This document shows positions 13,439-49,234 of a stretch of 64,000 bases of DNA, piece by piece. Position 1 is the first letter of the stretch. Every line of letters begins with the position of its first letter. The notes below the pieces were generated by a model, which was given only the letters and a program-made list of their open reading frames with translations, had not been told where the DNA came from and did not search any database. This stretch comes from Alphaproteobacteria bacterium. Its GTDB lineage: Bacteria > Pseudomonadota > Alphaproteobacteria > RF32 > CAG-239. The stretch covers positions 23,617-87,616 of the forward strand of contig JAQWBS010000001.1 of the NCBI GenBank assembly GCA_028706255.1, in the 5' to 3' direction. The position numbers and the translations under genes were made by a program.

Positions 13439-13448
13439 ATTTTTTCTC

Positions 13449-13646: not shown

Positions 13647-14074
13647 TATTCTTCCCCTAAATCAGAATTCAAACGTTGAACAAACTTAGTCTTCACTGGC
13701 AATTTTGCTGCACCAAGTGCAAATGCTTCACGAGCCATTTCTTCGCTAACATCTGCAAGTTCAAACAAAATACGACCAGGTTTAACTCTAGCTGCCCAAT
13801 ATTCTACGGATCCTTTACCTTTACCCATACGAACTTCGGCTGGTTTGTCGGAAACAGGAACATCAGGGAAAATTCTGATCCAAAGCTTACCGGCTCTTTT
13901 CATTTGACGACTGATTGCACGACGAGCTGCTTCAATTTGACGAGCTGTCACACGTTCAGGGGTAAGAGCTTTCAAGCCAAACTGACCAAAACTCAAGCTC
14001 GAACCGCCTTTTGCATCACCGTGAATACGGCCTTTATGCATTTTGCGGAACTTTAATCTTTTCGGACTTAACAT
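13646..14074 (-). CDS. rplP: 50S ribosomal protein L16
   Basis: [16 protein letters not shown] matches L16. Confidence 0.95.
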
Positions 14075-14090
14075 TTTACTTTAACCTCAA

Positions 14091-14759: not shown

Positions 14760-14763
14760 TTAC

Positions 14764-15138
14764 TTACTCCCCACGCTCGGTTAAAACGATAGTTAAATTT
14801 GAGAAAGGTTTCAATACTCTTGCAGCTCTTCCGCGACCACGGGCATGCATGCGTTTCATAACCAAACCTTTACCAACATAAGCTTCACTAACATACAATT
14901 TGTCAATATTCAAATTGTTATTATTTTCTGCATTCGCAACTGCTGAATTAAGAACATTCAACACAACATTTGCAATTCTCTTCTTTGAGAAGCTAAGTTC
15001 AGCCACAGCCTTTTCGACATTAAGACCACGAACAGATTGTGCAACCAAGTTAAGCTTTCTTGGGGAAGTACGAATTGAGTGACAAATCGCCATAGCTTGA
15101 TTTGCTTCAATTCTTTTTTTATTACTTGCTTGTCCCAT
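14764..15138 (-). CDS. rplV: 50S ribosomal protein L22
   Basis: AICHSIRTSPRKLNLVAQSVRG matches L22. Confidence 0.95.
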   Translation of the reverse strand: MGQASNKKRIEANQAMAICHSIRTSPRKLNLVAQSVRGLNVEKAVAELSFSKKRIANVVLNVLNSAVANAENNNNLNIDKLYVSEAYVGKGLVMKRMHARGRGRAARVLKPFSNLTIVLTERGE

Positions 15139-15419
15139 TATTTACCTCTCTTAGCTTTTTTATCTGCAGCGTGACCGTAATATGTACGAGTAGGCGCAAA
15201 TTCACCAAACTTATGTCCAACCATATCTTCTGAAACCAAAACTGGAATAAATTTGTGACCATTATGCACACCAAAAGTAAGTCCAACGAACATTGGAAGA
15301 ACAGTTGATCTACGAGACCACATTTTAATCACTTCATTACGGCTAGAAGCTTTGGACTTGTCTGCTTTCTTTAGAAGATAGCCATCAACAAACGGCCCTT
15401 TCCATACGGAACGTGTCAT
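15138..15419 (-). CDS. rpsS: 30S ribosomal protein S19
   Basis: [18 protein letters not shown]...[13 protein letters not shown] matches S19. Confidence 0.95.
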
Positions 15420-15431
15420 CAGCGTTTCTCC

Positions 15432-16268
15432 CTATTTCTTCTTGTTATCACGACGGCTTCTCATAATGAACTTATCCGTCTTTTTGTTTGAACGAGTTTT
15501 TCCACCCTTAGTTGGTTTACCCCAAGGAGTAACCGGATGACGACCACCAGATGTACGGCCCTCACCACCACCCATTGGGTGATCAACTGGGTTCATTGCA
15601 ACACCACGAGATACTGGTCTCATACCCAACCAACGAGAACGACCTGCTTTACCAAGTGATTTGTTTTGGTTGTCATGATTAGATACAGCACCAACTGTTG
15701 CTAAGCATTCTTCACGAACTACTCTGAGTTCACCAGAGCTTAATTTAATTTGAGCATAACCAGCATCTTTACCAACAAGTTGTGCATAACAACCTGCAGA
15801 TCTTGCCAATTGTCCACCTTTACCGCTTCTCATTTCCACGTTGTGAACGATTGTACCAACTGGCATATTCTTAAGAGGCATTGCATTACCTGGTTTAATA
15901 TCAGCTTTTGCAGATGCAATCACTTTGTCACCAGCTTTTAATCTCTGAGGAGCCAAAATATAAGCCTGTTCGCCATCAGCATAGCTAATTAAAGCAATAA
16001 AAGATGTACGGTTAGGGTCATATTCAATTCTCTCAACTGTTGCCTCAACATCGAACTTATTACGCTTAAAATCAATGATACGGTACTTTTGTTTGTGTCC
16101 GCCACCAATTCTACGACTTGTAACATGTCCAAAATTATCGCGCCCACCAGTCTTAGTAAGACCGATTGTCAAAGACTTCACAGGAGCTCCTTTATAAAGC
16201 TCTGATCTATCAACTATAACAAGTTGACGAAGTCCTGGCGATGTAGGCTTAAATGTTTTTAACGCCAT
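15432..16268 (-). CDS. rplB: 50S ribosomal protein L2
   Basis: [15 protein letters not shown]...[21 protein letters not shown] matches L2. Confidence 0.95.
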
Positions 16269-16271
16269 TTT

Positions 16272-16589
16272 CTATATTCCTGTTGTAATATCAATATTTT
16301 GACCATCAGCTAAAGTAACAATCGCTTTCTTATAGTCAGATCTTTGACCGATACGACCTTTGAAAACTTTTTCCTTACCAAACTGACGAACTGTATTAAC
16401 TTTAACAACCTTAGTGTTAAAAATGCTTTCAACAGCAGATTTAACTTCACCCTTAGTTGCGTCCAATGGAACCATAAAAGTTACTTTTCCAGCTTCTGAA
16501 GAAATCATTGACTTTTCAGTAATTACCGGACGAACCAATGTATCATACATTTTTGCAGTTACATCATTTGTCTTTTTTGACTTAGCCAT
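16272..16589 (-). CDS. rplW: 50S ribosomal protein L23
   Basis: Matches the L23 family, in its S10-operon position. Confidence 0.9.
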   Translation of the reverse strand: MAKSKKTNDVTAKMYDTLVRPVITEKSMISSEAGKVTFMVPLDATKGEVKSAVESIFNTKVVKVNTVRQFGKEKVFKGRIGQRSDYKKAIVTLADGQNIDITTGI

Positions 16590-17205
16590 TTAATCTCTCC
16601 TCTAAGCAAGCAATAGCATCTTTAGTCAAAACAAGTTTGTTTTTTCTCAAGATGTCATATACGTTTGCACCCACAGCCGGAAGAACATCAACATTAACAA
16701 TATTTCTACTTGCCAATGCGAAGTTCATATCAACTTCCTTACCATCGATGATTAAACAATTATTCAAACCACAAGTGTCCAACTTAACGAGCAAGTCTTT
16801 TGTTTTTGGAGTTGAAATTTTTGTGCTTTCAACGATAACAAGGTTTCCTTCTTTTGCTTTCGCAGACAAAGCTGTCTTCAAACCCAAAGCACGGAATTTT
16901 TTAGTCAAGTCATGAGAATGATCTCTTACAACTGGACCAAACACAATTCCACCCTTTCTGAATTGAGCAGTCTTACGAGAACCTTGACGAGCGCGACCAG
17001 TTCCTTTTTGCTTGAAAGGTTTTGCACCTGTCATAGCAACTTCTGATCTACCCTTCGTTTTGTGATTACCAGATTGCATTCTGGCAAGTTGCCATCTCAC
17101 AACTCTTTGCAAGATGTCTGCACGAACTTCAAGACCGAAAATAGATTCGTTCAAAGAAATTGTGCCAACTTTTTCATTATCTAAATTTAAGATGTCCTGT
17201 TTCAT
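16582..17205 (-). CDS. rplD: 50S ribosomal protein L4
   Basis: Matches the L4 family (ARQGSRKTAQFRKGGIVFGP). Confidence 0.95.
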   Translation of the reverse strand: MKQDILNLDNEKVGTISLNESIFGLEVRADILQRVVRWQLARMQSGNHKTKGRSEVAMTGAKPFKQKGTGRARQGSRKTAQFRKGGIVFGPVVRDHSHDLTKKFRALGLKTALSAKAKEGNLVIVESTKISTPKTKDLLVKLDTCGLNNCLIIDGKEVDMNFALASRNIVNVDVLPAVGANVYDILRKNKLVLTKDAIACLEERLNG

Positions 17206-17224
17206 TTTTATCCATCCTTAAAAG

Positions 17225-17950
17225 TTATGCATTATCAGCTGAAGTTTGTTCAGCTTTAACTGCAACAGGTTCATCAACTTTCTTAAGCCCTGCAGGCATA
17301 GGAAGCTCCACTTTAGATTGTTTTTTGATTGCGTCTGTAATACGAACCCAAGCGTTTTCACCACCAGGAACCGCACCTTTAACCAAAACTAAACCTCTAG
17401 CAGAATCAACAGCTACAACACGCAAGTTTTGAACAGTTTTACGTTCATCACCCATGTGACCAGCCATCTTCTTATTCTTAAATACCTTACCAGGATCTTG
17501 TCTTTGACCCGTAGATCCGTGAGCTCTGTGTGTAACAGACACACCGTGAGAAGCTTCCATACCAGCAAAGTTATGACGCTTCATTACACCGGCAAAACCT
17601 TTACCGATTGAAGTAGAACAAACGTCAACATATTGACCAGCAACGAAGTGTTCAACGCTCAAAGTGTCACCCACATTCAACAAGCACTCTTCAGAAACTC
17701 TGAATTCACCAAGTTTCTTCTTAGGCTCTACATTAGCTTTTGCGAAATGCCCTTTCATAGGCTTAGATACGTTCTTCGCTTTCACAGCACCAGTACCCAA
17801 CTGAACAGCAGTATAACCATCTCTGTCAGCAGTTCTAACGTCAACAACAGTTAAGTCTTCAACTTGTAGAACAGTCACAGGAACATGAGCACCACCGGCT
17901 TCAAAAACGCGAGACATTCCAAGCTTTTTAGCAATTAGACCCGTACGCAT
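17225..17950 (-). CDS. rplC: 50S ribosomal protein L3
   Basis: [16 protein letters not shown]...[13 protein letters not shown] matches L3. Confidence 0.95.
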
Positions 17951-18012
17951 TATATTTTACCCTTTTCAATAGGTTGATTTTTACTTTTTCAAAAAACCAA
18001 CTTTGTTATAAA

Positions 18013-18324
18013 TTAAAGTTTAATTTCGACATTCACACCAGCTGCCAAGTCTAATTTCATTAGTGCATCAACAGTTTGTGGTGTTGGGTCTACGATATCA
18101 AGAAGTCTCTTATGTGTACGAATTTCGAACTGTTCACGAGATTTTTTATCAACGTGAGGAGAACGGTTAACAGTAAACTTCTCAATTTGTGTTGGAAGAG
18201 GAATTGGTCCTCTTACATTTGCCCCAGTTCTTTTGGCAGTATGAACGATTTCTTTAGTAGAAAGGTCCAATAATCTGTGATCAAAAGCCTTAAGGCGAAT
18301 TCTTATATTTTGTGCATCCATCAT
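18013..18324 (-). CDS. rpsJ: 30S ribosomal protein S10
   Basis: [16 protein letters not shown]...[12 protein letters not shown] matches S10. The start may be the second Met. Confidence 0.95.
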
Positions 18325-18726
18325 TTTAAATACTTTTCCAAATATTTATTAATATAACTAGACGACAAAAATCTAGCCTTAGCCAAACATTGCCATCTAA
18401 ACTAAAAACAAGCGAACCATTGATTCAAGAGGGTTTGCCCTATGTTCTATACCCTATGAGATATCCCATAAAATAAAAATCTGAAGACGTTGTAACATAA
18501 GCCCACTGAATATGCAAGCGCTTTTTTCAAAAATTTTCCACTTTTTTCATTTTTTATTTTCAACGCAATCAAAGACTCTGATTCGCAGAGAATCTGATAG
18601 ACAAATTTGCTTTTGAGTCTATCGAGTCAATAATTCATCTTTTATTAACCTTGTTGTATTTCACTAAAAAACAAAATTATTAAAAGTTTTTTTCAACTTT
18701 TAATAACGGATTATATAGTTTATCAT

Positions 18727-18756
18727 TTTATACACAAAATCGTACAAATTTGTCAA
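18727..18756 (-). promoter_or_regulatory. Candidate sigma70 promoter for the S10 operon (TTGACA-18-TATAAA on the minus strand)
   Basis: Hexamers read directly on the reverse strand. It would give a leader of about 400 nt. There is no transcript evidence. Confidence 0.25.
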
Positions 18757-18857
18757 AAATACTATTGATTTATCACTAAATATTATTTAATTACGATATA
18801 TGGATGGTTACAGTTCATATTGTTATAATCAATAAATATTTGGTCTTTGAAACAACT

Positions 18858-19133
18858 ATGGTTAATCTAGTAAATAAAATTATTTGCTTAAGCTCTCATA
18901 ACACATGCATCAGACTTTGCGAAAAAGAATGGGAAGCATTTGATGAGATTTGTCTTAACAAAAAAATTAAAAGAAAAGCTCTAATTGAGAAAATCAAAGA
19001 AAAGAAGAGTGCTTGTATGGGACTAACCCCCGCAATCAGACTCTTTACTTTGCTCTATTATAAAGCTTTATACAATGAACCGGCTGGCGATGTTGAAAAC
19101 ATCTCCCTTGATGATCTCTTAAACTACATCTAA
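18858..19133 (+). CDS. Ribbon-helix-helix (RHH_4-like) domain protein
   Basis: SSHNTCIRLCEKEWEAFDEIC....KRKALIEKI followed by LTPAIRLFTLLYY resembles the alphaproteobacterial RHH_4 family (TSIRLEPEFWDALEEIA...LSSAIRLFVL). There is no convincing Shine-Dalgarno sequence, and the start (18804 or 18858) is ambiguous. Confidence 0.5.
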   Translation: MVNLVNKIICLSSHNTCIRLCEKEWEAFDEICLNKKIKRKALIEKIKEKKSACMGLTPAIRLFTLLYYKALYNEPAGDVENISLDDLLNYI

Positions 19134-19140
19134 TTTTTTG

Positions 19141-19935
19141 TTAAGGGGTTTTATGGCATTTTACCATACTCGGCATTTGCTGTCTCTTGAAAAACATTTT
19201 GCGGTATGTCTTCTCTATCAAACCGACGACGCTATTACTATGACCTCTTGCAACAATTTCTTTCACAGACAAGTTTTTATCGATTAACAACATCAAGATT
19301 TCATCTAACACGTCATATACTGGTAAACTATCTTCATCTTTTTGCCCCGCTTTTAGCTCTGCACTTGGTGCTCTTGAGATAACCGCTTCTGGCAAAACAC
19401 TTGCATAATGCCCATTAAGCCATTTAGCAAGAGCAAAAATTTGCGTTTTATACAAATCACCAATTGGCATTAACCCTCCGCAAGTGTCGCCATATAGCGT
19501 ACAATAACCCATAGCTGCTTCAGACTTATTGCCACATGCCAAAACCAAATAGCCAAACTGATTTGAAAGTGCCATCAAAATCTGTCCGCGAATTCTTGAT
19601 TGAACATTTTGCATCACCAAGTCTTTCGGGGTTTCTGCAAAAACCTGAGCGAATTTACGTTCATAATACTCAACCTCTGGCTGAATATCAATTACTTGAT
19701 AGTGGATTTTATTCCGCTTTGCAATTTCTTGAGCAATCTGCAAACTCAACATTGAAGTATATTTTGTTTTCATCATATAAGCATAAACATTATCTGCACC
19801 CAAAGCTTCTTTAGCAATAATTGAACAGACTGCAGAATCAAGCCCACCTGAGAGCCCTAAACAAACTTGCTTAAACCCATTTTGCTCACAATAATCCCTC
19901 ATTCCAACAACAAGTGCCTTCCAAATTTTTTCCAT
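19141..19935 (-). CDS. nadE: NH3-dependent NAD+ synthetase, single-domain form
   Basis: PP-loop LGLSGGLDSAV, size ~264 aa, no glutaminase domain. Starting at MEKIWKAL avoids an 88-nt overlap with nadM. Confidence 0.9.
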   Translation of the reverse strand: MEKIWKALVVGMRDYCEQNGFKQVCLGLSGGLDSAVCSIIAKEALGADNVYAYMMKTKYTSMLSLQIAQEIAKRNKIHYQVIDIQPEVEYYERKFAQVFAETPKDLVMQNVQSRIRGQILMALSNQFGYLVLACGNKSEAAMGYCTLYGDTCGGLMPIGDLYKTQIFALAKWLNGHYASVLPEAVISRAPSAELKAGQKDEDSLPVYDVLDEILMLLIDKNLSVKEIVARGHSNSVVGLIEKTYRKMFFKRQQMPSMVKCHKTP

Positions 19936-19951
19936 CTCATTTCTCCCAACC

Positions 19952-20494
19952 TTAAATAACCGCTTTTTTATTGAAGAAGCTCTCTTCAATAAGTTTATAA
20001 TTTTCAGGATTAATAAAGTTCTTCCATCGAACATCGCCAAATTTTATCATATCCCTCACCATTGTTCCGGTGACAAAGGGAAAATCTTGTGCCGTTCTAT
20101 CAATGAGTTCTATTTGCGTAAAAGCATGTCTAAACCAGTGTGCATCATAATTACTCCCTGCATAATAAACATCTGGCTTTGGCAAATCTGGAAAGCTTTC
20201 CAACATAAAATCCATTACATATTCCGCCCATTCTGCTGGATTATTAATATCAAACAATCCGATAATCTTCAGACGAGGATAATCAGGTGAATGACGATAG
20301 AGATTTTGAATCATTTTTTTTCGTGTGGTATAGTTAAGCGGATTACGCTCTGTGCCATGTTCTTGAATTGAACCAAGAACAATTGTCACTAATTCACACT
20401 CTTTTAACATCTTTTCAACAATGCGATGATGCCCAATGTGAAAAGGTTGAGCACGCATAATGGATAACCCATGTTTATATTTAAAATCAGACAT
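19952..20494 (-). CDS. nadM: Nicotinamide/nicotinate mononucleotide adenylyltransferase, archaeal NadM-type
   Basis: GLSIMRAQPFHIGHHRIVEKM carries the (H/T)xGH nucleotidyltransferase motif in a NadM-like N-terminus, at about 180 aa. The ATG at 20494 has a GGGAG Shine-Dalgarno sequence 7 nt upstream. Confidence 0.75.
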   Translation of the reverse strand: MSDFKYKHGLSIMRAQPFHIGHHRIVEKMLKECELVTIVLGSIQEHGTERNPLNYTTRKKMIQNLYRHSPDYPRLKIIGLFDINNPAEWAEYVMDFMLESFPDLPKPDVYYAGSNYDAHWFRHAFTQIELIDRTAQDFPFVTGTMVRDMIKFGDVRWKNFINPENYKLIEESFFNKKAVI

Positions 20495-20646
20495 AAAAAA
20501 ACTCCCATAAAATAGGAGCACAATTTGAGATGAGAAATCTATTCTCATATATCAATCAACATCAAACCGGCTCAGTTATATAAGTTCTTCACCCATTAGC
20601 CCTTCGGATGACGAGAACATGTTCAGTTTGATAGATTATCATCCCT

Positions 20647-20673
20647 TTGTCAAGAAAAAATCTAACTTGACAA
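20647..20673. promoter_or_regulatory. Perfect inverted repeat TTGTCAAG-N11-CTTGACAA in the divergent nadM / ORF20728 intergenic region
   Basis: An 8-bp perfect inverted repeat. Each half-site contains TTGACA reading outward. It is either an operator or face-to-face -35 elements. Confidence 0.4.
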
Positions 20674-20727
20674 AAAACTTTCAGGGGATAGACTAAACCC
20701 ATAAATCAATTTTTAGATTATATAATT

Positions 20728-20997
20728 ATGAAACCGACTCAAAACACCGCAACGTCTTCATTAGATGAAACCCTTGCGAACTTAGTGATTAAAAACGAAA
20801 GTGAAGCTCAGCAAATATGTAAAAGCGCTCAACCTTTTTATCTAGCAGAAATATCTGTTAAAGAACCAGATGAAAACAAAGCGCCTGAAACAATAATTGG
20901 TTGGATATCAAATGATGAATATCTAGTTGTTGACGCACTCACCGAAAAAAGATACTCCGCTTTGAACGCCGAATTTCAAGTTCTTAACTATCTATAA
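20728..20997 (+). CDS. Hypothetical small acidic protein (89 aa)
   Basis: ORF with non-repetitive composition. Its own terminator follows immediately. Confidence 0.45.
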   Translation: MKPTQNTATSSLDETLANLVIKNESEAQQICKSAQPFYLAEISVKEPDENKAPETIIGWISNDEYLVVDALTEKRYSALNAEFQVLNYL

Positions 20998-21002
20998 AGA
21001 AA

Positions 21003-21044
21003 AGCCCCTTAAACTCTAAAAAGTTTTAAGGGGCTTTTCTAAAA
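21003..21044 (+). terminator. Rho-independent terminator (AAAGCCCCTT-loop-AAGGGGCTTTT)
   Basis: A 9-10-bp GC-rich stem followed by TTTT. Confidence 0.6.
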
Positions 21045-21063
21045 TAGATTTCGAGAGCATTTA

Positions 21064-21285
21064 CTAAAGAGAAAACTTTCCTCTTCCGTCCGCTAGCACA
21101 CAATCCCGACCAGAAAACCAAACATCACAAAGCTGATTTCCAAGAGAAGGAATTCTTTTTCTTCCCGCCATCAATCTTGACTTATCAATACTAAGTTGAG
21201 TGGCTGCAGTGTCAACATTAACTTTCCAGTGAAAGGTCTTGTGTTTACAGTTGATATCAGTTGAACATCCAAAAGTTTTTTCCAT
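21064..21285 (-). CDS. Hypothetical small protein (73 aa, 4 Cys)
   Basis: ORF only. No Shine-Dalgarno sequence is recognisable. Confidence 0.3.
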   Translation of the reverse strand: MEKTFGCSTDINCKHKTFHWKVNVDTAATQLSIDKSRLMAGRKRIPSLGNQLCDVWFSGRDCVLADGRGKFSL

Positions 21286-21310
21286 AATATTTTTTATCTA
21301 ATATATTCTT

Positions 21311-21349
21311 AAAAAAAACCTATTAGGGCTCAAGGCGCTAATAGGTTTT
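21311..21349 (-). terminator. Rho-independent terminator (CCTATTAG-11nt loop-CTAATAGG), strong on the minus strand (U8)
   Basis: An 8-bp stem preceded by A8 on the plus strand, which is U8 on the minus strand. No annotated minus-strand gene ends here other than the candidate ORF at 21446-21619. Confidence 0.5.
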
Positions 21350-21445
21350 ATCACGTATCAATTAAGATGGGAACAATTCCGAGACCACAAAAAAATTACT
21401 CATCAATTTCTTGAACTTTCATAATGTCTAATTTTAAACGTTTAA

Positions 21446-21619
21446 CATCTAATGATAATCTCCAACCTGTTCTGACAAATCTGGACCTTTCCTTGTTTGT
21501 CGAGTATTTTGTCTTTTCTCACGTGAAAGGTGATTATTGTGAACAACATCAATTTCTCTTTGATCGCCCCATTCAGAACTTATTCCATAAACACTTTGTC
21601 GATTGTTTCTTGTTTCCAT
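21446..21619 (-). CDS. Candidate small ORF (57 aa, METRNNRQSVYGISSEWGDQREIDVVHNNHLSREKRQNTRQTRKGPDLSEQVGDYH) or small RNA unit
   Basis: It is not in the ORF track because it is under 60 aa. It lies between the tuf terminator and the strong minus-strand terminator at 21311-21349. A plus-strand 65-aa ORF at 21424-21621 overlaps it and is equally unsupported. Confidence 0.25.
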
Positions 21620-21733
21620 AATATGATTTGTTTTAGATTAATAATTGAAAAATAGTAGTTTTATGAAAAAATCTTAACAGTTTAATTCACAAAGTCAACC
21701 ATTAAAAAATCACCAATTATTATCCATTATTAC

Positions 21734-21763
21734 AAAAAAAGAGCTCTTCAAAAGAAGGGCTCT
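21734..21763 (-). terminator. Rho-independent terminator of the str operon downstream of tuf
   Basis: AGAGCTCTTC-aaaa-GAAGgGCTCT hairpin followed by U7 on the minus strand. Confidence 0.6.
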
Positions 21764-21787
21764 TTCCTTTAACTAATTAAAGTTATA

Positions 21788-21875
21788 TAAATTGTGTGGG
21801 CTACGCCTTAAGTTTTTGACGAAGTGTACACAGAAAGTACACGAGGAAAAAACTTAAAAGTATGACACCAATTTA
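21788..21875 (-). repeat. Copy C of the ~85-nt imperfect-palindromic element, abutting the tuf stop codon
   Basis: TAAATTGtGTGggCTACGccttaagTTTTTGACGAaGTGTACacagaaaGTACACGAGGAAAAAAcTTaaAAGTATGACACCAATTTA. The closing stem is TAAATTG(t)GTG/CACCAATTTA. It ends 2 nt from the tuf stop. Confidence 0.65.
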
Positions 21876-21877
21876 GA

Positions 21878-23068
21878 TTACTTTAGAATCTTAGATACCA
21901 CACCGGCACCCACAGTTCTACCACCTTCACGGATTGCAAAACGAAGACCTTCGTCCATAGCAATTGGGTGAATGAGGTTTACTGTAATTGTTACGTTGTC
22001 TCCAGGCATTACCATTTCTGTTCCTGCTGGAAGTTCAATCGCTCCTGTTACGTCTGTTGTTCTGAAATAGAACTGTGGACGATAGTTACCGAAGAATGGC
22101 GTATGACGTCCACCTTCATCTTTGTTCAAGATATAGCATTCGCCATTGAAGCTTGTGTGTGGTGTGATTGAACCAGGAGCCGCTAATACTTGTCCACGTT
22201 CAACATCTTCTCTCTTCGTTCCACGAAGCAATACACCTACGTTATCACCTGCTTGACCACTATCCAACAATTTACGGAACATTTCAACGCCTGTACATGT
22301 TGTCTTAGCTGTTGGTTTAATGCCCACGATTTCCATTTCGTCACCAACTTTAATAACACCACGTTCTACACGACCTGTTACCACTGTTCCACGGCCTGAA
22401 ATTGAAAATACGTCTTCAATTGGCATCAAGAATGGTTTGTCAACTGCTCTTTCTGGTTGTGGAATATAAGCATCTACTGCATCCATCAAAGCAATAATTG
22501 CTTTCTTACCGATTTCTTCGTTGCTGTCTTCCAATGCTGCCAAAGCTGAACCTTTTACAATCGGAATTTCATCGCCAGGGAATTCGTATGAACTTAACAA
22601 ATCTCTGATTTCCATTTCAACGAGTTCCAACAATTCTTCATCATCAACTTGGTCTACTTTGTTCATAAATACTACCAAAGCTGGTACGCCTACTTGACGT
22701 GCCAACAAAATGTGTTCACGTGTTTGTGGCATTGGACCATCTGCTGATGATACCACCAAAATTGCACCATCCATTTGTGCCGCACCTGTAATCATATTCT
22801 TTACATAGTCAGCGTGGCCTGGGCAGTCTACGTGTGCATAGTGACGAGCCTTTGTTTCATATTCTACGTGTGACGTTGAAATCGTGATACCACGTGCTCT
22901 TTCTTCTGGTGCTTTATCAATATTTGCATAGTCTACAAATGCACCGCCGCCTTGTTCCGCCATAATCTTTGTAATTGCCGCTGTCAATGTCGTCTTACCA
23001 TGATCAACGTGACCAATCGTGCCAATGTTACAGTGCGGTTTATTACGCTCAAATTTCTCTTTTGCCAT
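21878..23068 (-). CDS. tuf: Elongation factor Tu
   Basis: [28 protein letters not shown] is the canonical EF-Tu N-terminus. Confidence 0.97.
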
Positions 23069-23101
23069 TTTAATTTTCTCCAAAAGCAAATTGTTACATG
23101 T

Positions 23102-23122
23102 GGGGTGAGAAGTTCTCACCCC
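23102..23122 (-). other. GC-rich hairpin (GGGGTGAG-loop-CTCACCCC) in the fusA|tuf spacer
   Basis: An 8-10-bp G+C stem in an AT-rich genome with no U-run after it. It is a possible processing or stability element or a weak attenuator. Confidence 0.35.
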
Positions 23123-23133
23123 GATGAAATTAA

Positions 23134-25212
23134 TTATTTTCCGTGTTTAGCTTTAATTGCCTCAGCAACGTCTCTTGGAACTTCCGCATAGTGATGGAAT
23201 TCCATTGTGAACTGAGCACGACCTTGAGAAAGTGAACGAAGAGAGTTAACATAACCAAACATATTTGCCAAAGGCACATGTGCGTTAACAACTTTCGCAT
23301 TTCCTCTTTGATCCATTCCGTTCACCAAACCACGACGAGAGTTCAAGTCACCGATTACATCACCCATATATTCTTCAGGCGTAACCACTTCAACTTTCAT
23401 AATTGGTTCAAGAAGTCTTGGATCTGCTTCACGCATACCTTCTCTGAAGGCCGCACGAGCAGCAATTTCAAAACACATTACGTTAGAGTCAACATCATGG
23501 TAAGCACCATCGTAAAGTGTTGCTTTAACACCAGTCACAGGATATCCAGCAATAACACCAGTATCCATAGCAGTACGCAATCCTTTTTCAACACCAGGGA
23601 TGTATTCTTTAGGAACGTTACCACCAACAACCGTGTTAGCAAATTCAAAACCAGTATAACCTTCAATTGGCTCAAATTTGATTTTAACTTTCGCAAATTG
23701 ACCAGCACCACCAGATTGTTTCTTGTGTGTATAGTCAATATCAGCCATTTTTGTAATTGTTTCACGGTAAGCCACTTGTGGTTCACCAATATTAGCTTCA
23801 ACTTTGAATTCACGACGAAGTCTATCAACCAAAATTTCAAGGTGAAGTTCACCCATACCTTTAATGATTGTTTGACCACTATCTTGGTCAGTTGAAACGC
23901 GGAAAGATGGATCTTCCATTGCCAAACGAGACAATGCTAAGCCCATTTTTTCAACGTCAGCTTTAGTTTTTGGTTCAACAGCAAGTTCAATCACTGGATC
24001 TGGGAATTCCATTCTTTCCAAAATGATTGGCTTAGATGAATCACAAAGCGTGTCACCAGTTGTTGTATCTTTCAAACCAGCCAAGGCAACGATATCACCA
24101 GCGTGTGCTTCTTTCAATTCTTCACGTTTGTTTGCGTGCATCAAAAGCATACGACCAACTCTTTCTTTTTTGTCTTTAACTGAGTTATAGATATATGAAC
24201 CAGCTTCCAAAGTACCAGAATAAATACGAGTAAATGTCAAAGAGCCAACGAATGGGTCATTCATAATTTTGAATGCCAAAGCAGATAATGGTTCATTATC
24301 AGCAGGGTGTCTTTCTTCTTCTTTTTCTGTATTTGGATTGATACCATCAATTGCAGGAATATCCATTGGAGAAGGAAGATAATCAATTACAGCATCAAGC
24401 AAAGGTTGAACACCTTTGTTTTTGAACGCTGTTCCACAAAGAACAGGAACGAAATCTTGAGCCAAAGTTCCTTTACGGATACATTTTTTCAATCTTTCGA
24501 GAGTAATTTCTTTTCCTTCCAAATAATCTTCCATAGCTGCGTCATCTTGTTCAACAGCCATTTCAATTAATTCTGAACGATATTTTGCTGCATCTGCTGC
24601 AAATTCAGCAGGAATTTCTTTAACTTCAATTGGAGAATCAGGTGTATCACCTGTGTAAATAATTGCATTATTATTTACCAAGTCAATCACACCTCTGAAT
24701 TCTGCTTCAGCACCAATAGGAAGTTGGATAGGCATTGCTCTTGCACCAAGACGATCATGAATCATATCGATACAACGATAGAAGTTCGCACCGATTCTGT
24801 CCATTTTGTTGCAGAAGCAAATACGAGGAACATTATATTTATCAGCTTGTCTCCAAACTGTTTCAGATTGTGGTTCAACACCAGCAACTGAGTCAAACAC
24901 AGTTACAGCACCATCAAGCACACGAAGGGAACGTTCAACTTCAATTGTGAAGTCAACGTGTCCTGGCGTATCAATGATGTTAACGCGGTGATTTTTCCAG
25001 TAGCAAGTTGTTGCCGCAGAAGTAATTGTAATACCTCTTTCTTGCTCTTGTTCCATCCAGTCCATTGTAGCAGCACCATCGTGCGTTTCACCAACTTTAT
25101 GAGAACGACCAGTATAGAACAAAATTCGTTCAGTTGTAGTTGTCTTACCAGCATCAATGTGCGCCATGATTCCGATGTTTCTATACATTTCCAATTTATG
25201 CGTACGAGCCAT
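23134..25212 (-). CDS. fusA: Elongation factor G
   Basis: [15 protein letters not shown], 692 aa, in its str-operon position. Confidence 0.97.
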
Positions 25213-25290
25213 TGTTTTGTTTTCCTAATTTTGTATTCTTAATATATATAACAAAACTTGTTATGTGAGGATTATAATAAGAAATAAGAG

Positions 25291-25365
25291 GCGAGAAAAA
25301 TTAGTGTATAAAAAAATACATGGATTTTCTCGCTCTCGAAATTTCTGCATTAGAAACCCGCAGAA
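25291..25365 (-). other. Nested palindrome GCGAGAAAA...GTGTAT-A7-ATACAT...TTTTCTCGC plus a second hairpin TTCTGC-N11-GCAGAA in an expanded rpsG|fusA spacer
   Basis: The 163-nt spacer sits between genes that are normally adjacent. A 9-bp outer stem encloses a 5-bp inner hairpin. Confidence 0.4.
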
Positions 25366-25375
25366 CGAGTTTTTG

Positions 25376-25858
<483 letters not shown>

Positions 25859-26230
25859 CTATTTAGGTCTTTTAGCGCCGTATAGCGAACGACGTTGACG
25901 ACGTTTAGCAATACCTTGAGTATCCAAAGTACCGCGAATAATATGATAGCGAACACCAGGTAAGTCTTTTACACGGCCTCCTCTAATCAGCACCACTGAG
26001 TGTTCTTGCAAGTTATGACCTTCACCAGGGATATAGCTGATTACTTCAAAGCCGTTTGTTAGACGAACGCGAGCCACTTTACGCAACGCTGAGTTTGGTT
26101 TCTTAGGGGTTGTTGTATAAACCCTAGTACAAACACCGCGTTTTTGTGGACAAGCTTTCAAAGCCGGAACTTTGTTTCTTGTAGTTTTTGGTGTTCGTGA
26201 TTTACGAATTAACTGATTAATTGTAGGCAT
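25859..26230 (-). CDS. rpsL: 30S ribosomal protein S12
   Basis: [12 protein letters not shown]...[11 protein letters not shown] matches S12. Confidence 0.95.
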
Positions 26231-26601
26231 CACTTTTTCCTTAAATATTACATTTTTTAATCAACATATAACAGATTCGCAAAACGCCAACCGCTTTGCC
26301 CAACCCGTTATAAACTTTAACATTATCAATAGATTAACTCTCTGATAAGACTCATTCAAAGGACGGATTCCGCCCCTTTTGAGTCGTCGCAATATAGACT
26401 CAAGCTTTTGAATAGTCAACAGTTTTTTCAGAAATAATTTATAATGTTTTTACCTTCTTTCAAAAAGCTAAAACATTGACACATCACTCGTCGCGTCAAA
26501 AACTGTGCCAAGTTTTGTATAAGTGTAAAAATTCCTTGCAAAAATCTCAAGAAAAGACTAATTTCGTGCTATTAATAAAAACAATTTTAAAGGAATATAC
26601 T

Positions 26602-45206: not shown

Positions 45207-45223
45207 TTCCTTTCAGATACCTT

Positions 45224-45260
45224 AAAAAAGGAGAATGTCTTTTTCACATTCTCCTTTTTT
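45224..45260. terminator. Bidirectional rho-independent terminator (AGGAGAATGT-loop-ACATTCTCCT)
   Basis: A perfect 10-bp stem flanked by A5 and T5. It serves trmB on the plus strand and the autotransporter on the minus strand. Confidence 0.7.
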
Positions 45261-45277
45261 ACATAAATGACCCTGAT

Positions 45278-48200
45278 CTAAAAATTATATCTAATCGTCA
45301 AATAAAGTTGATCATCGGAATACCCTGAACGGCTATCTCTTGCATAACCAAAGTTTAACGCAAAAGGTGTATAAATGTTATTAATTTTCAAATTCATCTT
45401 ACCACGAATACTATCTCGACTATCTGGTGTTCCACTCACCGCCCATGGGCTTTCAGGACTTCCAACAAAATATGAATTAACACTCACATTTCTATCTCCA
45501 ACATTTCGTGCATATGCTAATTCAATGGCAGGCGAGAGAATAAAAGTATCAAAGACCATATTTTGAGAAAGTCTTAACCCAATTGGAAGCTCAACTGTAT
45601 TATAACTTGTTTTCTCAAAGTGACGGGCCCCGACACCTTTTTCATCATAAGCCTCAGTAAACATATAAGAATAATCAACACCGACAAAAGGCTCAATAAC
45701 ATAACGACTATTTCCCAAATCATAACCAAACTCAACATTTGAGAACAACACGCCTATATCATACTCTCCTCGGGCATTGAGACTGCTTGTTGTTAATTTC
45801 GTTTTATTGAGAATAATACCTCCACCAACGCTTCCCGTTGTATAAAGTCTTTTTGGTTTATATTTCCAATAACCTGACAATAAATATTCATCAACATCAG
45901 AGTGGCTATAAACATCACTTGCTCCTGTCCCTTCCACTTCTCCAAAAGCATAGCTAAAGGCAAGTCCTAAGGTTAAGGCATTTGGAATAATGTCATGATC
46001 ATATCCCCAAGCCAAGCTTGTTGGACGATATTCATAACCTAAACTATCCCAACGTCCTTTTTTCTCAACCCAATTTTTGCCGACATTAAACCATAAATGT
46101 TGGTCAGAAAAACCATTTAACATCCCACAACTCTGGCAATCTTTATTCTGAATGCGGGAATATATCTGACGATTAAATTGTCTAATCGTTGCTTTATGAA
46201 GCTCTTGATAAGATTTCGTATCCTCACCACCAACTGTTGCCAACTCTGATTTATATGCACTACTAACAGCCCCTGTATAATAAATATTTTCATAAACATC
46301 CCTATCTTTTTGGCTCAAATCATCACGTTTACGATAAATATCTGCAAAAGAAGACAACCCCTCATACCCTTCCAAATCTTTAACTTCAATTGAGGTTACA
46401 CCACCTTGACTTTCAACTTTAAGCAAATTATTTTCAAATCCTTCAAATTTACTATAATCCACATTGTATATATGTTGTTCTTCACCCGTTAAAGAAGAAA
46501 CATTATAAGGACGAAGCAAGGAAACGCCATTCACTGTTATGTCATTCCCAATATTCGCAATTTGACCATTTGTCACTTTTGGTTTAAAAACAGTTCCACC
46601 ATTAAAACTGATTGTTGCATTGCTTAAATCAAAAGAAAGTCTCTGTCCCAGAGGATCGTTCAAAACATCTTGCTTATTGTCAAACATGGCATAGAACGTT
46701 CCCTCTTCAATGTTTAATTCTCCACCGTATGCACTATTATCTCCCCAAAGAGATAAAGTTCCCTCTCCTATCTTATTAATTTCTCCATAAGCGCCAAAAG
46801 ACCCATCATCATTTCCACTTCTTAATGGATCCCAAATATTGATTGAAGATTGAGCGATTGAATTCAGGTTAACAACTCCCCCATTCCCCAAAAAGATTGA
46901 TTCCAATTTCTTCTCTTCTTGTGCAGTATCAGCATTCGTGATGATATAATTATTTGCAATGAAAATATTCTTCTTAGATTCTGTTGTTGCAATCGTGACA
47001 GCACCAGAATATGCATTATAAATCGCACCTCCTAAAGCAACATCATTGGCAGATTTTGCATAATTTCCAACAATATCCCCTGATAAGATGATTATACCAC
47101 CAAATGCGTTATAAATCGCTCCACCATAAGCACCTGTTTCCCCAAAAACATAATTTTGTACAAAATCTCCAGAAAGAGATGAGAATTGAGAACCACCTAT
47201 ATTATAGATTCCTCCGCCGGATGACGTAGCCATGATGGATTTTGCATAATTTTCAGTAACATCTCCAGATAAAGTAATTATACTACCAGATGCATTATAA
47301 ATCGCTCCACCATAAACACTTGTTTGACCCCAAACATAATTACGCACGAAATCCCCAGAAAGGGATGAGAATTGAGAACCAGATGCATTATAGACTGCTC
47401 CGCCATACGACGTAGCAGTAGCAGATTTTGCATAATTTTCTACCATATTTCCAGATATAGTTATTATACCGCTATTATCATTATAAATTGCCCCTCCACT
47501 AGCATCTGTCTGAGCAGAAGCATAGTTTCTATAAAAATAGCCTACATTATTCATTCTAGATGAAGAAGTGACGTAAATCGCCCCACCCCTCGCCCAATCA
47601 GAACTTGAAAAAGCATAATTTTCAATAAAACTACTTTCTAAACTATTCAAAATAGATGTATTCTCAGCATAAATTGCCCCTCCAGAAGCTTGTTCATAAG
47701 CAAAAACATAATTACCCTTGAAATCTCCAGAAAGGGAATCAATTTTCCCAGCATCCACATAGATTGCCCCACCCTGCGCATTATCTGAGCTTGAAATGGC
47801 ATAATTTTCAAAAAAAGCTCCATTCAGCTGAGTAATTCTCGTACTATTATACATTCCAATTGCCCCACCAGCAACCTCTTCAACTCCAGAAACATAATTT
47901 TGAATAAAATTGCTTTTAACGCTATCTAAAAGCGTGCCGTTCCCAAGAACTTGAATAGCCCCTGAATAAGCACTATCGGAAGAAGATGTCGCAGAGTTTC
48001 CAATAAAATCTCCCTCAATCTCAGAAATAGTTGAGTCATAACCTTGAAAGATTGCCCCACCATATGCTTTTCCATAAGCTTCCACATTATTTTTTATAAA
48101 ATTTCCTTTAATAGATTTAATTTTTCCATATTGATTATAAATCGCCCCGCCTTGACCAACACCAGAGAAAGAAATTGCGGAATTTCCAATAAAATCGCCG

Positions 48201-49072
48201 CTAAGATCCATAATATTATATGCTTCAAGTCCTAAATGGTTATTATAAATTGCGCCACCAAGAGCATTACTAGATGCCTTTACATAGTTTCCGATAAAAC
48301 TTCCTTGAATATCTCCAAAATAACTATAAGTACCAAACAAAGCTCCTCCGAGAGCCTCACTTGATGTTGAAACAACATAATTTCCAATAAAATCACCTGT
48401 TATTGACCCAAGATTATGATTTGCATAACCACTGTAAATTGCACCACCCCTCCCTGAATTAACACCATCTACGTAATTTCCGATAAAATTTCCAGTAATA
48501 CTCTCAATCTTATGTCCTCCGGTTGCAATGTTATTCGAAACATAAATTGCACCACCAAACCCAGATACATGATTACCTATAAAATCTCCAATAATATTAC
48601 CTATTTCCGTTACTGATGTAGAAGGATAACCAACAAAAATAGCACCCCCATCTTCATCATAATTTCCTAAAAAATCAGAAGTAATATTACCAACATCACC
48701 ACCGAGAGTGTTTGTAATGGCTCTTCCACCGGCATAACTTTCAGAGGTATAAGCCTCAACAAAATGACCATCAACGGAATTTACATTTCCCGCACTATTA
48801 GTAATTGGAGCTTGACTAACCACGTCAGGCTTAATTGAGACTGTATATTTATAGAATTTTTTTTGGTATTCCCCATTTGAATCTTTTTCAAAAGTGGAGA
48901 AATCTGCATTACTTTCATCTGTTGCTTCATAGATTAAAACATAGGCACTCTCAGCACTTAGGTGATCTAATGTGGGGGTATAGGTGCTGAAATCAACAAC
49001 AGCATAGGCTCTTGATGAAGACACAAAAGCTATGAGAGGGAGGAGGAGGAGAAATCTAAACTTACTGTTCAT
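45278..49072 (-). CDS. Pmp-like (polymorphic-membrane-protein-type) autotransporter, 1264 aa
   Basis: The signal peptide is MNSKFRFLLLLPLIAFVSSSRAYA. The passenger has about 18 GGA[IV] and about 15 F/V-x-x-N-[YH] motifs in 25-30-aa repeats. The C-terminal ~290 aa form a beta-barrel domain ending ...LYLTIRYNF (terminal aromatic). The start is the ATG at 49072. Confidence 0.85.
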   Translation of the reverse strand: MNSKFRFLLLLPLIAFVSSSRAYAVVDFSTYTPTLDHLSAESAYVLIYEATDESNADFSTFEKDSNGEYQKKFYKYTVSIKPDVVSQAPITNSAGNVNSVDGHFVEAYTSESYAGGRAITNTLGGDVGNITSDFLGNYDEDGGAIFVGYPSTSVTEIGNIIGDFIGNHVSGFGGAIYVSNNIATGGHKIESITGNFIGNYVDGVNSGRGGAIYSGYANHNLGSITGDFIGNYVVSTSSEALGGALFGTYSYFGDIQGSFIGNYVKASSNALGGAIYNNHLGLEAYNIMDLSGDFIGNSAISFSGVGQGGAIYNQYGKIKSIKGNFIKNNVEAYGKAYGGAIFQGYDSTISEIEGDFIGNSATSSSDSAYSGAIQVLGNGTLLDSVKSNFIQNYVSGVEEVAGGAIGMYNSTRITQLNGAFFENYAISSSDNAQGGAIYVDAGKIDSLSGDFKGNYVFAYEQASGGAIYAENTSILNSLESSFIENYAFSSSDWARGGAIYVTSSSRMNNVGYFYRNYASAQTDASGGAIYNDNSGIITISGNMVENYAKSATATSYGGAVYNASGSQFSSLSGDFVRNYVWGQTSVYGGAIYNASGSIITLSGDVTENYAKSIMATSSGGGIYNIGGSQFSSLSGDFVQNYVFGETGAYGGAIYNAFGGIIILSGDIVGNYAKSANDVALGGAIYNAYSGAVTIATTESKKNIFIANNYIITNADTAQEEKKLESIFLGNGGVVNLNSIAQSSINIWDPLRSGNDDGSFGAYGEINKIGEGTLSLWGDNSAYGGELNIEEGTFYAMFDNKQDVLNDPLGQRLSFDLSNATISFNGGTVFKPKVTNGQIANIGNDITVNGVSLLRPYNVSSLTGEEQHIYNVDYSKFEGFENNLLKVESQGGVTSIEVKDLEGYEGLSSFADIYRKRDDLSQKDRDVYENIYYTGAVSSAYKSELATVGGEDTKSYQELHKATIRQFNRQIYSRIQNKDCQSCGMLNGFSDQHLWFNVGKNWVEKKGRWDSLGYEYRPTSLAWGYDHDIIPNALTLGLAFSYAFGEVEGTGASDVYSHSDVDEYLLSGYWKYKPKRLYTTGSVGGGIILNKTKLTTSSLNARGEYDIGVLFSNVEFGYDLGNSRYVIEPFVGVDYSYMFTEAYDEKGVGARHFEKTSYNTVELPIGLRLSQNMVFDTFILSPAIELAYARNVGDRNVSVNSYFVGSPESPWAVSGTPDSRDSIRGKMNLKINNIYTPFALNFGYARDSRSGYSDDQLYLTIRYNF
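47008..48673 (-). repeat. Coding repeat region of the autotransporter passenger (GDFIGNY...GGAIY units)
   Basis: A regular alternation of FxxN and GGAI motifs is seen in the translation. The coordinates are approximate. Confidence 0.6.
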
Positions 49073-49188
49073 AAGACAACATCCTGTATTAATAATTTGA
49101 AAGAATATAACATTATTATCACATAAATTTAATAAATATTCAATTAATAATCTTTCTCTCTCCACTAAGAATGTATAATATAGTATAC

Positions 49189-49213
49189 AAAAAAAAGCGA
49201 CCTTTAAGGCCGC
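49189..49213 (-). terminator. Rho-independent terminator after ackA (GCGACC-tttaa-GGCCGC + U8 on the minus strand)
   Basis: A hairpin with one mismatch, followed by A8 on the plus strand. Confidence 0.5.
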
Positions 49214-49234
49214 TTCTCTTGTAAAATAAGCAAC

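Follow-up and report, generated by a model that had tools for sequence, protein, structure and literature searches.

Type Va autotransporters have a 12-stranded C-terminal β-barrel with an α-helical linker passing through its pore, and a C-terminal aromatic residue is an outer-membrane-protein signature recognised by BAM. The chlamydial polymorphic membrane proteins (Pmps), including C. trachomatis PmpD and PmpE, are autotransporters of this type in which FxxN and GGA[ILV] tetrapeptides alternate along the passenger. Each rung of the Pmp repeat region comprises five strands and places FxxN on turn T2 and GGA on T4 (PMC10715098), and the motif spacing has been described by the pattern GGA[ILV]-x(12,23)-FxxN (PMC11166332). 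Pmps act in adhesion (PMC2997323, PMC4287181) and assemble into homo- and hetero-oligomers (PMC8326573), and the tetrapeptides themselves have been argued to be structural and buried rather than ligand-binding (PMC10715098); the motifs are therefore uninformative as to what is bound. Repeat proteins of Pfam family PF02415 (Chlam_PMP) are also found outside the chlamydiae, in more than 100 species including members of Akkermansia, Phycisphaerae, Methanobrevibacter and Trichomonas (PMC10715098, PMC11166332).

The window analysed here, a 64,000-nucleotide stretch of an alphaproteobacterial metagenome-assembled genome (MAG), encodes a protein with these features. The complete coding sequence (45278..49072, with its stop codon at 45278-45280) is on the minus strand, which corrects the first-pass annotation, and the minus-strand frame 45278..49165 is the sole long ORF in the interval. 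The predicted ATG start at 49072, with an AGGA sequence 9 nt upstream, gives a 1264-aa product identical to NCBI MDD4555782.1 (named "autotransporter domain-containing protein", from an Alphaproteobacteria MAG). The same gene is present intact in the independent Logan assembly of SRR22315502, such that two independent assemblies agree, and a 1295-aa version with a GTG start is present in one Logan contig. An exact look-up of the 1264-aa product returned no record, and a literature search on the accessions and sequencing runs gave no match. The first 24 residues, MNSKFRFLLLLPLIAFVSSSRAYA (49001..49072, minus strand), read by the n/h/c-region and AxA rules as a Sec signal peptide, with a basic n-region, a hydrophobic core and predicted cleavage after AYA (MNSKFRFLLLLPLIAFVSSSRAYA|VV). 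The GC content of the gene (0.36-0.38) equals that of its flanks, and horizontal transfer as judged by composition was rejected on that ground. Phase variation found no support either; a (CTC)4 run lies in frame among the signal-peptide codons, and the sole tandem DNA repeat is 78% identical between copies.

The neighbouring genes are pta, ackA, trmB, an HTH gene and lnt, in agreement with the earlier description of a housekeeping region in an alphaproteobacterium-like genome, as is the NCBI organism name; Rfam and tRNA scans of the window gave no match. Strong terminators had been proposed around the gene and these are present on both sides. Downstream, between the convergent autotransporter and trmB genes, there is a bidirectional intrinsic terminator hairpin with A6 and T6 flanks (45223..45261), folding at -20.3 kcal/mol (z -5.5) when read on the minus strand and at -18.7 kcal/mol (z -7.5) when read on the plus. 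Upstream, a hairpin followed by T8 (49187..49222, minus strand; -17.7 kcal/mol, z -5.1) constitutes the intrinsic terminator of ackA. With terminators on both flanks the gene is therefore a separate transcription unit. The first-pass proposal of a dedicated promoter fares less well: there is a weak sigma-70-like candidate, TTGAAT-17 nt-GATAAT with an extended-10 TG (49115..49143, minus strand), but it matches 9/12 consensus positions, and there are 16 such sites in the region where shuffled sequences give 22.8, fewer than chance, so the match alone is not significant.

The repeat region (aa 126-691; 47000..48697, minus strand) contains 18 rungs of ~31 residues with the consensus GDFIGNY-x7-9-GGAIY-x10, each with an FxxN and a GGA[ILV] motif. 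Sixteen of the rungs have GGA[ILV] itself, one has GGGI and one a degenerate SGAI, and it is from these that the count of 18 is derived; the earlier figure of about 18 GGA motifs is thus correct as a rung count. F-x-x-N-[YHSN] occurs 16 times in aa 134-708 (11 of these being F-x-x-N-Y), and M, V or I replaces the F at three further positions. The two motifs are in strict alternation at a period of 30-36 residues; successive FxxN sites are separated by 30-35 residues and GGA sites by 30-36, save for one 64-residue gap spanning the degenerate SGAI rung. Neither motif is this frequent in 2000 shuffles of the protein, which contain on average 0.28 GGA[ILV] (maximum 4; 16 observed) and 5.0 FxxN (maximum 14; 19 observed), and the published chlamydial pattern is present 13 times where 0.014 are expected in shuffles. 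Within this region a 186-bp unit encoding 62 aa, or two rungs, is tandemly duplicated (2.3 copies, 78% identity; 47050..47470, minus strand; Tandem Repeats Finder), and protein self-identity is 0.31 at a lag of 62 residues versus 0.19 at a lag of 31. No other ORF of the 64,000-nt window, in whichever frame, is rich in GGA[ILV].

Profile searches gave a divided answer for the Chlam_PMP family. Scanned by itself, the repeat region (586 aa) reaches 30.5 bits (E 2.8e-7, seven stretches), above the 20.6-bit gathering cut-off, but the full-length protein falls below it (16.6 bits, E 0.0088), and neither NCBIfam TIGR01376 (POMP_repeat) nor the PMP_M middle domain (PF07548) is matched by the full-length protein at E <= 0.1. 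Because of these three results the protein is, as judged from sequence, Pmp-like and falls outside the chlamydial Pmps proper. The Pmp-type GGA/FxxN passenger repeats reported previously are nonetheless real, as seen from the motif statistics, the Chlam_PMP match of the region alone and the β-helix model. A PDB sequence search with the whole protein had no match at E <= 0.01.

The AF2 model of the passenger is a confident β-helix (pLDDT 88.4, pTM 0.90), with blocks in the repeat region mostly at 90-98, and this together with the C-terminal barrel described below provides the helix-plus-barrel architecture that the first-pass annotation had predicted. DSSP analysis of the model shows all 18 rungs to be alike, in the order b1-T1-b2-T2(FxxN)-b2a-T3-b2b-T4(GGA)-b3, with the GN of FxxN and the GGA located in turns; such five-strand rungs, FxxN lying on T2 and GGA on T4, are those of the Pmp repeat region. 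AF2 is reported to over-predict confident β-solenoids for repeat sequences, although models of PF02415 proteins are judged reliable (PMC11795689) and the repeats here are diverged (19% self-identity at lag 31). Just past the last rungs, in a WDP/RDP motif at about aa 748, there is a near-invariant Asp that is kept in at least 90% of 47 aligned sequences; in the chlamydial Pmps the Asn ladder starts from an invariant Asp of Rung 0 (PMC10715098). At the other end of the repeats is an N-terminal cap domain with a PTLD motif (aa 25-125; 48698..49000, minus strand), which has no Pfam match and is modelled as β strands with block mean pLDDT mostly 63-83. The motif, as P[TS]L[DN], is within the first 150 aa of 57 of the 120 top homologues, and in the model this domain would form the far tip of the passenger.

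C-terminal to the repeats is a passenger stalk of non-repeat β-helix (aa 692-845; 46538..46999, minus strand; pLDDT about 75-88), containing two degenerate rungs (FIANN and FLGN); a PATR-like repeat occupies its residues 765-793, with sub-threshold matches to PATR (21.5 bits, cut-off 27) and TIGR02601 (19.3 bits, cut-off 19.85). It is followed by a low-confidence segment (aa 846-919) and an α-helical linker (together 46103..46537, minus strand); when aa 690-1264 were modelled by AF2, pLDDT fell below 50 at model residues 157-230 and helices were placed at model residues 215-285. A long helix of moderate confidence (aa 938-974) directly precedes the barrel, as in type Va proteins, and alignments to full-length EstA and pre-cleavage EspP span both helix and barrel. 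By analogy with EstA, EspP and NalP, this helix presumably plugs the barrel pore. The β-barrel translocator (aa 991-1264; 45281..46102, minus strand) ends in the aromatic residue of ...LYLTIRYNF and matches Pfam Autotransporter PF03797 at aa 993-1230 (126.6 bits, cut-off 26; E 1.8e-36), in keeping with the C-terminal barrel ending in F noted earlier. Foldseek comparison of the C-terminal model (helix plus barrel) with the PDB identifies EstA (1.9e-17), EspP (2.6e-13) and NalP (TM-score 0.79-0.81 on target), and the matches to EstA, AaaA, EspP, Hbp, NalP, AIDA-I and BrkA range from E 1e-17 to 1e-8. The barrel itself has TM-scores of 0.7-0.8 on target with NalP, BrkA and EspP.

This domain architecture, with its repeat statistics and predicted fold, is best explained by a classical type Va autotransporter that exports a Pmp-like β-helix rod, a reading to which we assign a probability of about 0.8. 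The secretion route is established for autotransporters of type Va. The 24-residue Sec signal peptide would direct the protein to the periplasm, and BAM would insert the ~12-stranded C-terminal barrel (aa 991-1264) in the outer membrane, the linker helix occupying the pore. Export of the passenger (aa 25 to ~845) would follow, and it would fold from the C-terminal stalk outwards into a right-handed parallel β-helix, a rod made up mostly of the 18 rungs of ~31 residues with near-identical geometry. In each rung FxxN would provide one buried turn, contributing to an Asn ladder, and GGA[ILV] a second; the variable exposed parts would be the 3-4-residue T3 turn, within the 9-10 residues from FxxN to GGA, and the segment following GGA, with the conserved PTLD cap domain placed at the tip. 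From the analogy with Pmps and other β-helical autotransporters we infer a surface-displayed adhesin or aggregation rod, whose tip or face for binding would project out from the cell; the host-adhesion or surface-variation role proposed in the first-pass annotation is likewise putative.

The repeat region matches 1044 cluster representatives (50% identity clusters) at E <= 1e-3 among 1.84 billion from metagenomes. In a separate search several metagenomic passenger homologues carry PF02415; P0008 and P0021, with E-values of 1e-94 and 1e-81 against the passenger, pass the Chlam_PMP cut-off as whole proteins. A widespread C-terminal domain of the passenger homologues carries a ...RWKVGRE motif terminally or close to its terminus and has no Pfam match, and the C-terminal domain of P0004-type homologues has none even at E <= 10. 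The passenger module appears to have been joined to several C-terminal anchors, including the type Va barrel and the ...RWKVGRE domain. The stalk is conserved in P0002, P0003, P0007 and P0123-P0129, and every stalk-plus-barrel relative with a named source derives from an Alphaproteobacteria MAG, two others having no informative name. A scan of a GTDB collection that leaves out the window's own genome identified only one relative, with 50% identity and a different genomic context. The relatives carry paralogues in which the translocator is conserved and the passengers are divergent, and in some the array is shorter or is absent from the called product. We note that default BLASTP missed the obvious similarity of the two L003 paralogues, which was recovered by Smith-Waterman alignment and by BLASTP without composition adjustment. 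In this lineage of low-GC alphaproteobacterial MAGs a conserved stalk-plus-barrel cassette appears to take exchangeable passengers of none to 18 rungs, in two repeat dialects and as tandem paralogues. A tentative suggestion, which we consider rather doubtful, is that the protein belongs to a separate sub-family of Pmp-like surface rods, as yet undescribed, with the 31-aa GDFIGNYA...GGAIYN rung and a conserved N-terminal PTLD tip domain; if so, the lineage would have a polymorphic surface-protein system parallel to the chlamydial Pmps that may mark a host-associated lifestyle. A description of the GDFIGNYA...GGAIYN/PTLD sub-type was not found in the Pmp-repeat literature examined.

Among other explanations, the one closest to ours has the autotransporter self-associating in the manner of Ag43, AIDA-I or TibA, and acting mainly in bacterium-bacterium aggregation and biofilm formation and not in host binding. 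A long regular β-helical rod on a type Va barrel would suit this role, the chlamydial Pmps themselves oligomerise (PMC8326573), and there is no sign of host association for this organism; however, neither the Pfam AIDA repeat nor any other self-associating-autotransporter repeat is matched, and since the sole difference from the favoured explanation is the binding partner, we regard it as unlikely but of real weight. That the passenger is instead a β-helical enzyme with a pectin-lyase-like fold (a polysaccharide lyase, glycosidase or epimerase) is much less probable. Identity to such enzymes is only 7-14% and Foldseek gives no match at E <= 1e-3, a likeness of generic fold. Among the catalytic families of Pfam and NCBIfam, those of pectate lyases and glycosyl hydrolases included, none is matched at E <= 0.1, and in the model the 18 uniform rungs have short turns, without the long loops to build a catalytic groove.

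We give least credence to the idea that the long array arose in assembly, or that the gene is decaying, and that there is no functional protein. MAG assemblies can mis-join repeats, and in a related MAG two paralogues (P0128 and P0129) are truncated within the conserved stalk where their contigs end. Here, however, the frame is open over 1264 codons with every domain complete, the NCBI MAG and the independent Logan assembly carry identical sequence, and the repeats, among which there is only the one 186-bp tandem at 78% identity, are too diverged in DNA to collapse or mis-join.

The type Va autotransporter with a Pmp-like rod is an ordinary member of a class already widespread outside Chlamydia; the class, its secretion route and its non-chlamydial occurrence are already documented, the NCBI annotation is already that of an autotransporter, and no concept is changed. 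It is a clean and highly regular alphaproteobacterial addition to the Pmp-type FxxN/GGA β-helices, and its 18 near-uniform rungs, with relatives having shorter or absent arrays, could serve as a model for rung folding and help to show what the rod displays. As a candidate surface adhesin the protein also gives a hint as to the lifestyle of this uncultured low-GC alphaproteobacterium.

With the chlamydial Pmps it shares the type Va organisation, the alternating FxxN/GGA[ILV] repeats, a GGA-to-FxxN gap (13-19 residues) inside the chlamydial range (14-18 in the core pattern and 12-23 in the relaxed one; PMC11166332), a predicted rung of five strands that places FxxN on T2 and GGA on T4 (PMC10715098), and relatives whose paralogues combine a conserved translocator with divergent passengers. 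It differs in its source, an alphaproteobacterial MAG (by NCBI name) and not a member of the Chlamydiaceae, and in having a stalk with a sub-threshold PATR-like repeat in place of PMP_M (PF07548) or TIGR01376, unmatched at E <= 0.1. The rung is 31 residues long, whereas that of Pmps can be as short as 27; FxxN and GGA are separated by 9-10 residues where 4-5 is commonest in Pmps, and the repeats are far more regular, with Y following both FxxN and GGAI. Non-chlamydial PF02415 proteins have the same tetrapeptide pair in a β-helix, and the repeat region here passes PF02415 on its own, but the sub-type is marked by the tight 31-aa GDFIGNYA...GGAIYN consensus and the PTLD cap. Pertactin, Vag8, Ag43, UpaB and AIDA-I have the same order of parts (signal peptide, β-helical passenger, linker helix and ~12-strand barrel), and structural matches include the passengers of Vag8, Ag43b and UpaB and the barrels of NalP, EspP, BrkA and AIDA-I. 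Compared with these classical type Va adhesins, no Pertactin autochaperone domain (Pfam) or AIDA repeat is detected, and the predicted rung contains an extra S-shaped excursion, giving it five strands where theirs has three.

The interval contains one long open reading frame (window 45278..49165, minus strand). Translation from the ATG at 49072, which has an AGGA on its 5' side at a spacing of 9 nt, yields a 1264-aa product whose N-terminus is a typical Sec signal peptide (MNSKFRFLLLLPLIAFVSSSRAYA, followed by VV). This product is exactly NCBI MDD4555782.1 (on a 488,686-bp contig), for which the generic NCBI name is correct. An independent Logan assembly of SRR22315502 has this gene too, among the same neighbours, which shows that the repeat array is not an artefact of assembly. 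The frame is open for a further 93 nt upstream of the ATG (49165..49073, minus strand) as far as a GTG, which one gene caller (Logan) chose as the start of a 1295-aa product; we prefer the ATG because the extension overlaps a promoter-like site and has no signal peptide at its own N-terminus. A (CTC)4-CCT-CTC run (49040..49057, minus strand) codes for LLLLPL, the core of the signal peptide, and because (CTC)4 is an in-frame trinucleotide repeat, slippage would alter the length of the h-region and not switch the gene off. The GC content of the gene (0.36-0.38) equals that of its flanks, and there is thus no compositional sign of recent transfer.

Upstream of the autotransporter gene, in the same orientation, lie pta and ackA, and downstream are the convergent trmB, HTH_3 regulator and lnt genes. 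Sequence and folding identify a hairpin followed by T8 to the 3' side of ackA, and a second, perfect one of 16 bp, with A6 and T6 at its edges, in the interval that separates the stop codons of the autotransporter gene and trmB. The folds of both are far more stable than those of shuffled sequences (z -5.1 to -7.5), bearing out the strong terminators noted in the first-pass annotation, and with hairpins on both sides the gene is its own transcription unit. For the promoter region credited to the gene by the same annotation there is one candidate site (TTGAAT-17-tgGATAAT, 49143-49115), a single 9-of-12 consensus match, and such matches are rarer in the surrounding region than in its shuffles. 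Elsewhere in the 64-kb window, a minus-strand run of short ORFs with strongly negative GC skew (~4000..26300) resembles a ribosomal-protein/EF-Tu/EF-G operon; no RNA families (Rfam) or tRNAs were detected within the window, nor any further GGA-rich ORFs.

Residues 126-691 comprise 18 units, each about 31 residues long and arranged head to tail, with the consensus [GS]-[DN]-F-I-G-N-Y-x7-9-G-G-A-I-Y-x10. The array contains 16 GGA[ILV] motifs together with one GGGI and one degenerate SGAI, and 16 F-x-x-N-[YHSN] motifs (Y in 11 of them), with three more units in which M, V or I replaces F. The two motifs alternate strictly along the array, as had been described from the sequence with a count of about 18 GGA motifs. 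FxxN motifs are 30-35 residues apart and GGA motifs 30-36, save for one gap of 64 residues over the degenerate SGAI rung. Shuffled versions of the protein contain a mean of 0.28 GGA[ILV] (maximum 4) and 5.0 FxxN (maximum 14). The PROSITE-style pattern for chlamydial Pmps, GGA[ILV]-x(14,18)-FxxN, occurs seven times, and its relaxed form with x(12,23) (PMC11166332) 13 times against 0.014 in shuffles. Self-identity of the protein is 0.31 at a lag of 62 residues and 0.19 at a lag of 31, and Tandem Repeats Finder reports one unit, of 186 bp, at 47050-47470 (2.3 copies, 78% identity), indicating that duplication of a two-rung unit, not a recent event, enlarged the array in its C-terminal part.

Of the two profiles proposed at the outset, that of the autotransporter beta-domain (PF03797) matches residues 993-1230 strongly (126.6 bits, E 1.8e-36), and that of Chlam_PMP (PF02415) matches the 586-aa repeat region alone (30.5 bits, E 2.8e-7, in seven stretches) but not the whole protein, which reaches 16.6 bits where the gathering score is 20.6. 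The Pfam model is short and weak, and its threshold is passed once the scan omits the remaining ~680 residues. The passenger homologues P0008 (E 1e-94) and P0021 (E 1e-81) pass PF02415 as whole proteins; PATR and TIGR02601 both fall slightly under their cut-offs at residues 765-793. Judged by profile, the repeat is Pmp-type in the Pfam sense. TIGR01376 and PMP_M (PF07548) have no match at E <= 0.1 in a Pfam/NCBIfam scan of the whole protein, and with the PMP_M middle domain absent we reject its assignment as a chlamydial Pmp in the strict sense.

A search with the stalk and barrel (residues 696-1264) recovers only eight proteins at E <= 1e-10; those with an informative source name are all from Alphaproteobacteria MAGs, and two (JGI, Logan) carry no such name. 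The first search had yielded P0003 and P0007, which have this region in common with the window protein as well. Passenger length differs among the stalk-and-barrel relatives, which are 498-566, 901-922 or 1002 aa long against the 1264 aa of the window protein, and the called products of 498-566 aa have little or no repeat region. P0002 (MAG VLC_001) is 50% identical and 363 aa shorter, equivalent to ~12 fewer rungs, and lies in another context, with an H+-pyrophosphatase gene on one side and unrelated genes on the other. P0125, P0127 and a 911-aa gene product of Logan contig L003 combine this stalk and barrel with a different repeat dialect (FGNNIxFxNN ... YGGII). That contig (L003:161-6106, SRR11470088) encodes two adjacent autotransporter paralogues of 911 and 1002 aa with 57% identity overall (510 of 891 aligned residues, Smith-Waterman), a similarity missed entirely by default BLASTP with composition adjustment. 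The resemblance is visibly much closer in the C-terminal stalk-and-barrel parts, and the passengers have diverged, in the FGNNIxFxNN/YGGII and GDFIGNY/GGAIY dialects respectively. P0124 and P0125 are likewise encoded on a single contig. In one Alphaproteobacteria MAG (locus tags ACK5N8_...), P0128 and P0129 are partial and end at contig edges, breaking inside an identical ~80-aa stalk sequence nearly identical to window-protein residues ~770-850, which suggests that a close relative holds several paralogues whose identical stalks break the assembly. The variable lengths, dialects and adjacent paralogues indicate that the lineage has a small family of paralogues in which the translocator is conserved and the passengers are polymorphic.

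Among 1.84 billion cluster representatives, the repeat region alone matches 1044 at E <= 1e-3, 196 of them at E <= 1e-30, and the whole protein matches at least 1831 proteins at E <= 1e-5 (90% identity collection). The 31-aa sub-type is modest in size and has a clear presence in metagenomes. Aligning 47 of its members gives a consensus (GDFIGNYA...GGAIYN) nearly identical to the window unit, and the N-terminal PTLD cap is present in about half of the top matches. Many passenger homologues (such as P0004, P0008, P0009, P0022 and P0055) have a conserved C-terminal ~400 aa in place of the Pfam-recognised autotransporter barrel, with the motif ...GYNFEF..GK.ILQP...SYTFVNTFDY...NGWQPY..V.MVWN...GGRNG..LT.G.RW..G.. 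and, in some, an extra tail ending TRTTS.G.L.QL. By regular expression, 29 of 122 proteins end in ..RWxxGK/R and 25 of 122 in TRTT..L.QL. No Pfam family matches this domain, even with the threshold relaxed to E <= 10, and it may be an undescribed outer-membrane anchor.

An AF2 model of residues 25-760, built with 46 homologues, has a mean pLDDT of 88.4 and pTM of 0.90, and the DSSP string read against the repeats gives one pattern common to all 18 rungs. Each rung is predicted to run from a 6-residue strand through a G-D turn, a 2-residue strand (F-x), a G-N turn, a 4-residue strand (Y-V-x-x), a turn of 3-4 residues and a strand of 2-3 residues to a G-G-A turn and a final 3-4-residue strand (I-Y-x). 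AF2 over-predicts confident beta-solenoids for perfect repeats, and for PF02415 four of four prediction methods agreed (PMC11795689); the repeats here are well diverged, unlike those behind this caveat. Foldseek with the passenger model gives no match at E <= 1e-3, in agreement with the statement that no solved structure has the Pmp rung type (PMC10715098). In the model of residues 690-1264 (pLDDT 71) the beta-helix runs on to about residue 831, followed by low confidence at 846-919, helices including a long one at 938-974, and a barrel at 991-1263. Foldseek matches this model to EstA (1.9e-17), AaaA, EspP, Hbp, AIDA-I and BrkA, and to NalP with a TM-score of 0.79-0.81 on target, so that the beta-helix and barrel foreseen in the first-pass annotation are both found in the predicted structures. 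Just C-terminal to the last rungs, a nearly invariant Asp at about residue 748 (about 46829..46831, minus strand) in a WDP/RDP motif is shared by at least 90% of the homologues in an alignment of 47, and may correspond to the Asp of Rung 0 from which the Asn ladder of chlamydial Pmps is seeded.

The analysis itself establishes the order of the domains, the statistics of the repeats, a predicted fold for each half and the separate transcription unit. Type Va autotransporters are known to be exported by Sec, their barrels are inserted with the assistance of BAM while the linker helix occupies the pore, and their passengers are exported and folded vectorially from C- to N-terminus. By this route the window protein would be exported by Sec and its barrel inserted by BAM around the linker helix, with the passenger emerging and folding C-to-N, nucleated by the non-repeat stalk. 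We put the probability of this architecture and secretion model at about 0.9. The 18-rung rod would then act as spacer and scaffold, projecting the conserved PTLD cap, together with the variable segments at T3 and after GGA, outward from the cell, where they would serve in adhesion or aggregation. In Pmp models FxxN and GGA are buried and structural, not ligand-binding (PMC10715098), and Pmps are adhesins that oligomerise (PMC2997323, PMC4287181, PMC8326573); by this analogy an adhesin or aggregation role is somewhat favoured. A passenger with enzymatic activity is unlikely, as catalytic families have no match and the rungs are uniform.

Pmp-type motifs have already been documented beyond Chlamydia, and the protein itself is already in NCBI. 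PF02415 extends to more than 100 species that are not chlamydial, and chlamydial proteins make up less than a third of its members in UniProt (PMC10715098, PMC11166332). Slightly beyond the ordinary, as leads and not findings, are the tight 31-aa dialect with its PTLD cap, the combination of the passenger module with different C-terminal anchors, and one translocator carrying interchangeable passengers in the lineage of the window protein. The rung described for the Pmp repeat region is b1-T1-b2-T2-b2a-T3-b2b-T4-b3-T5, with FxxN on T2 and GGA on T4 (PMC10715098), and the modelled rung of the window protein is predicted to be the same. It is 31 residues long, compared with a minimum of 27 in chlamydial Pmps, and the difference sits in the FxxN-to-GGA segment, which is most commonly 4-5 residues in chlamydial Pmps (PMC11166332) and 9-10 here.
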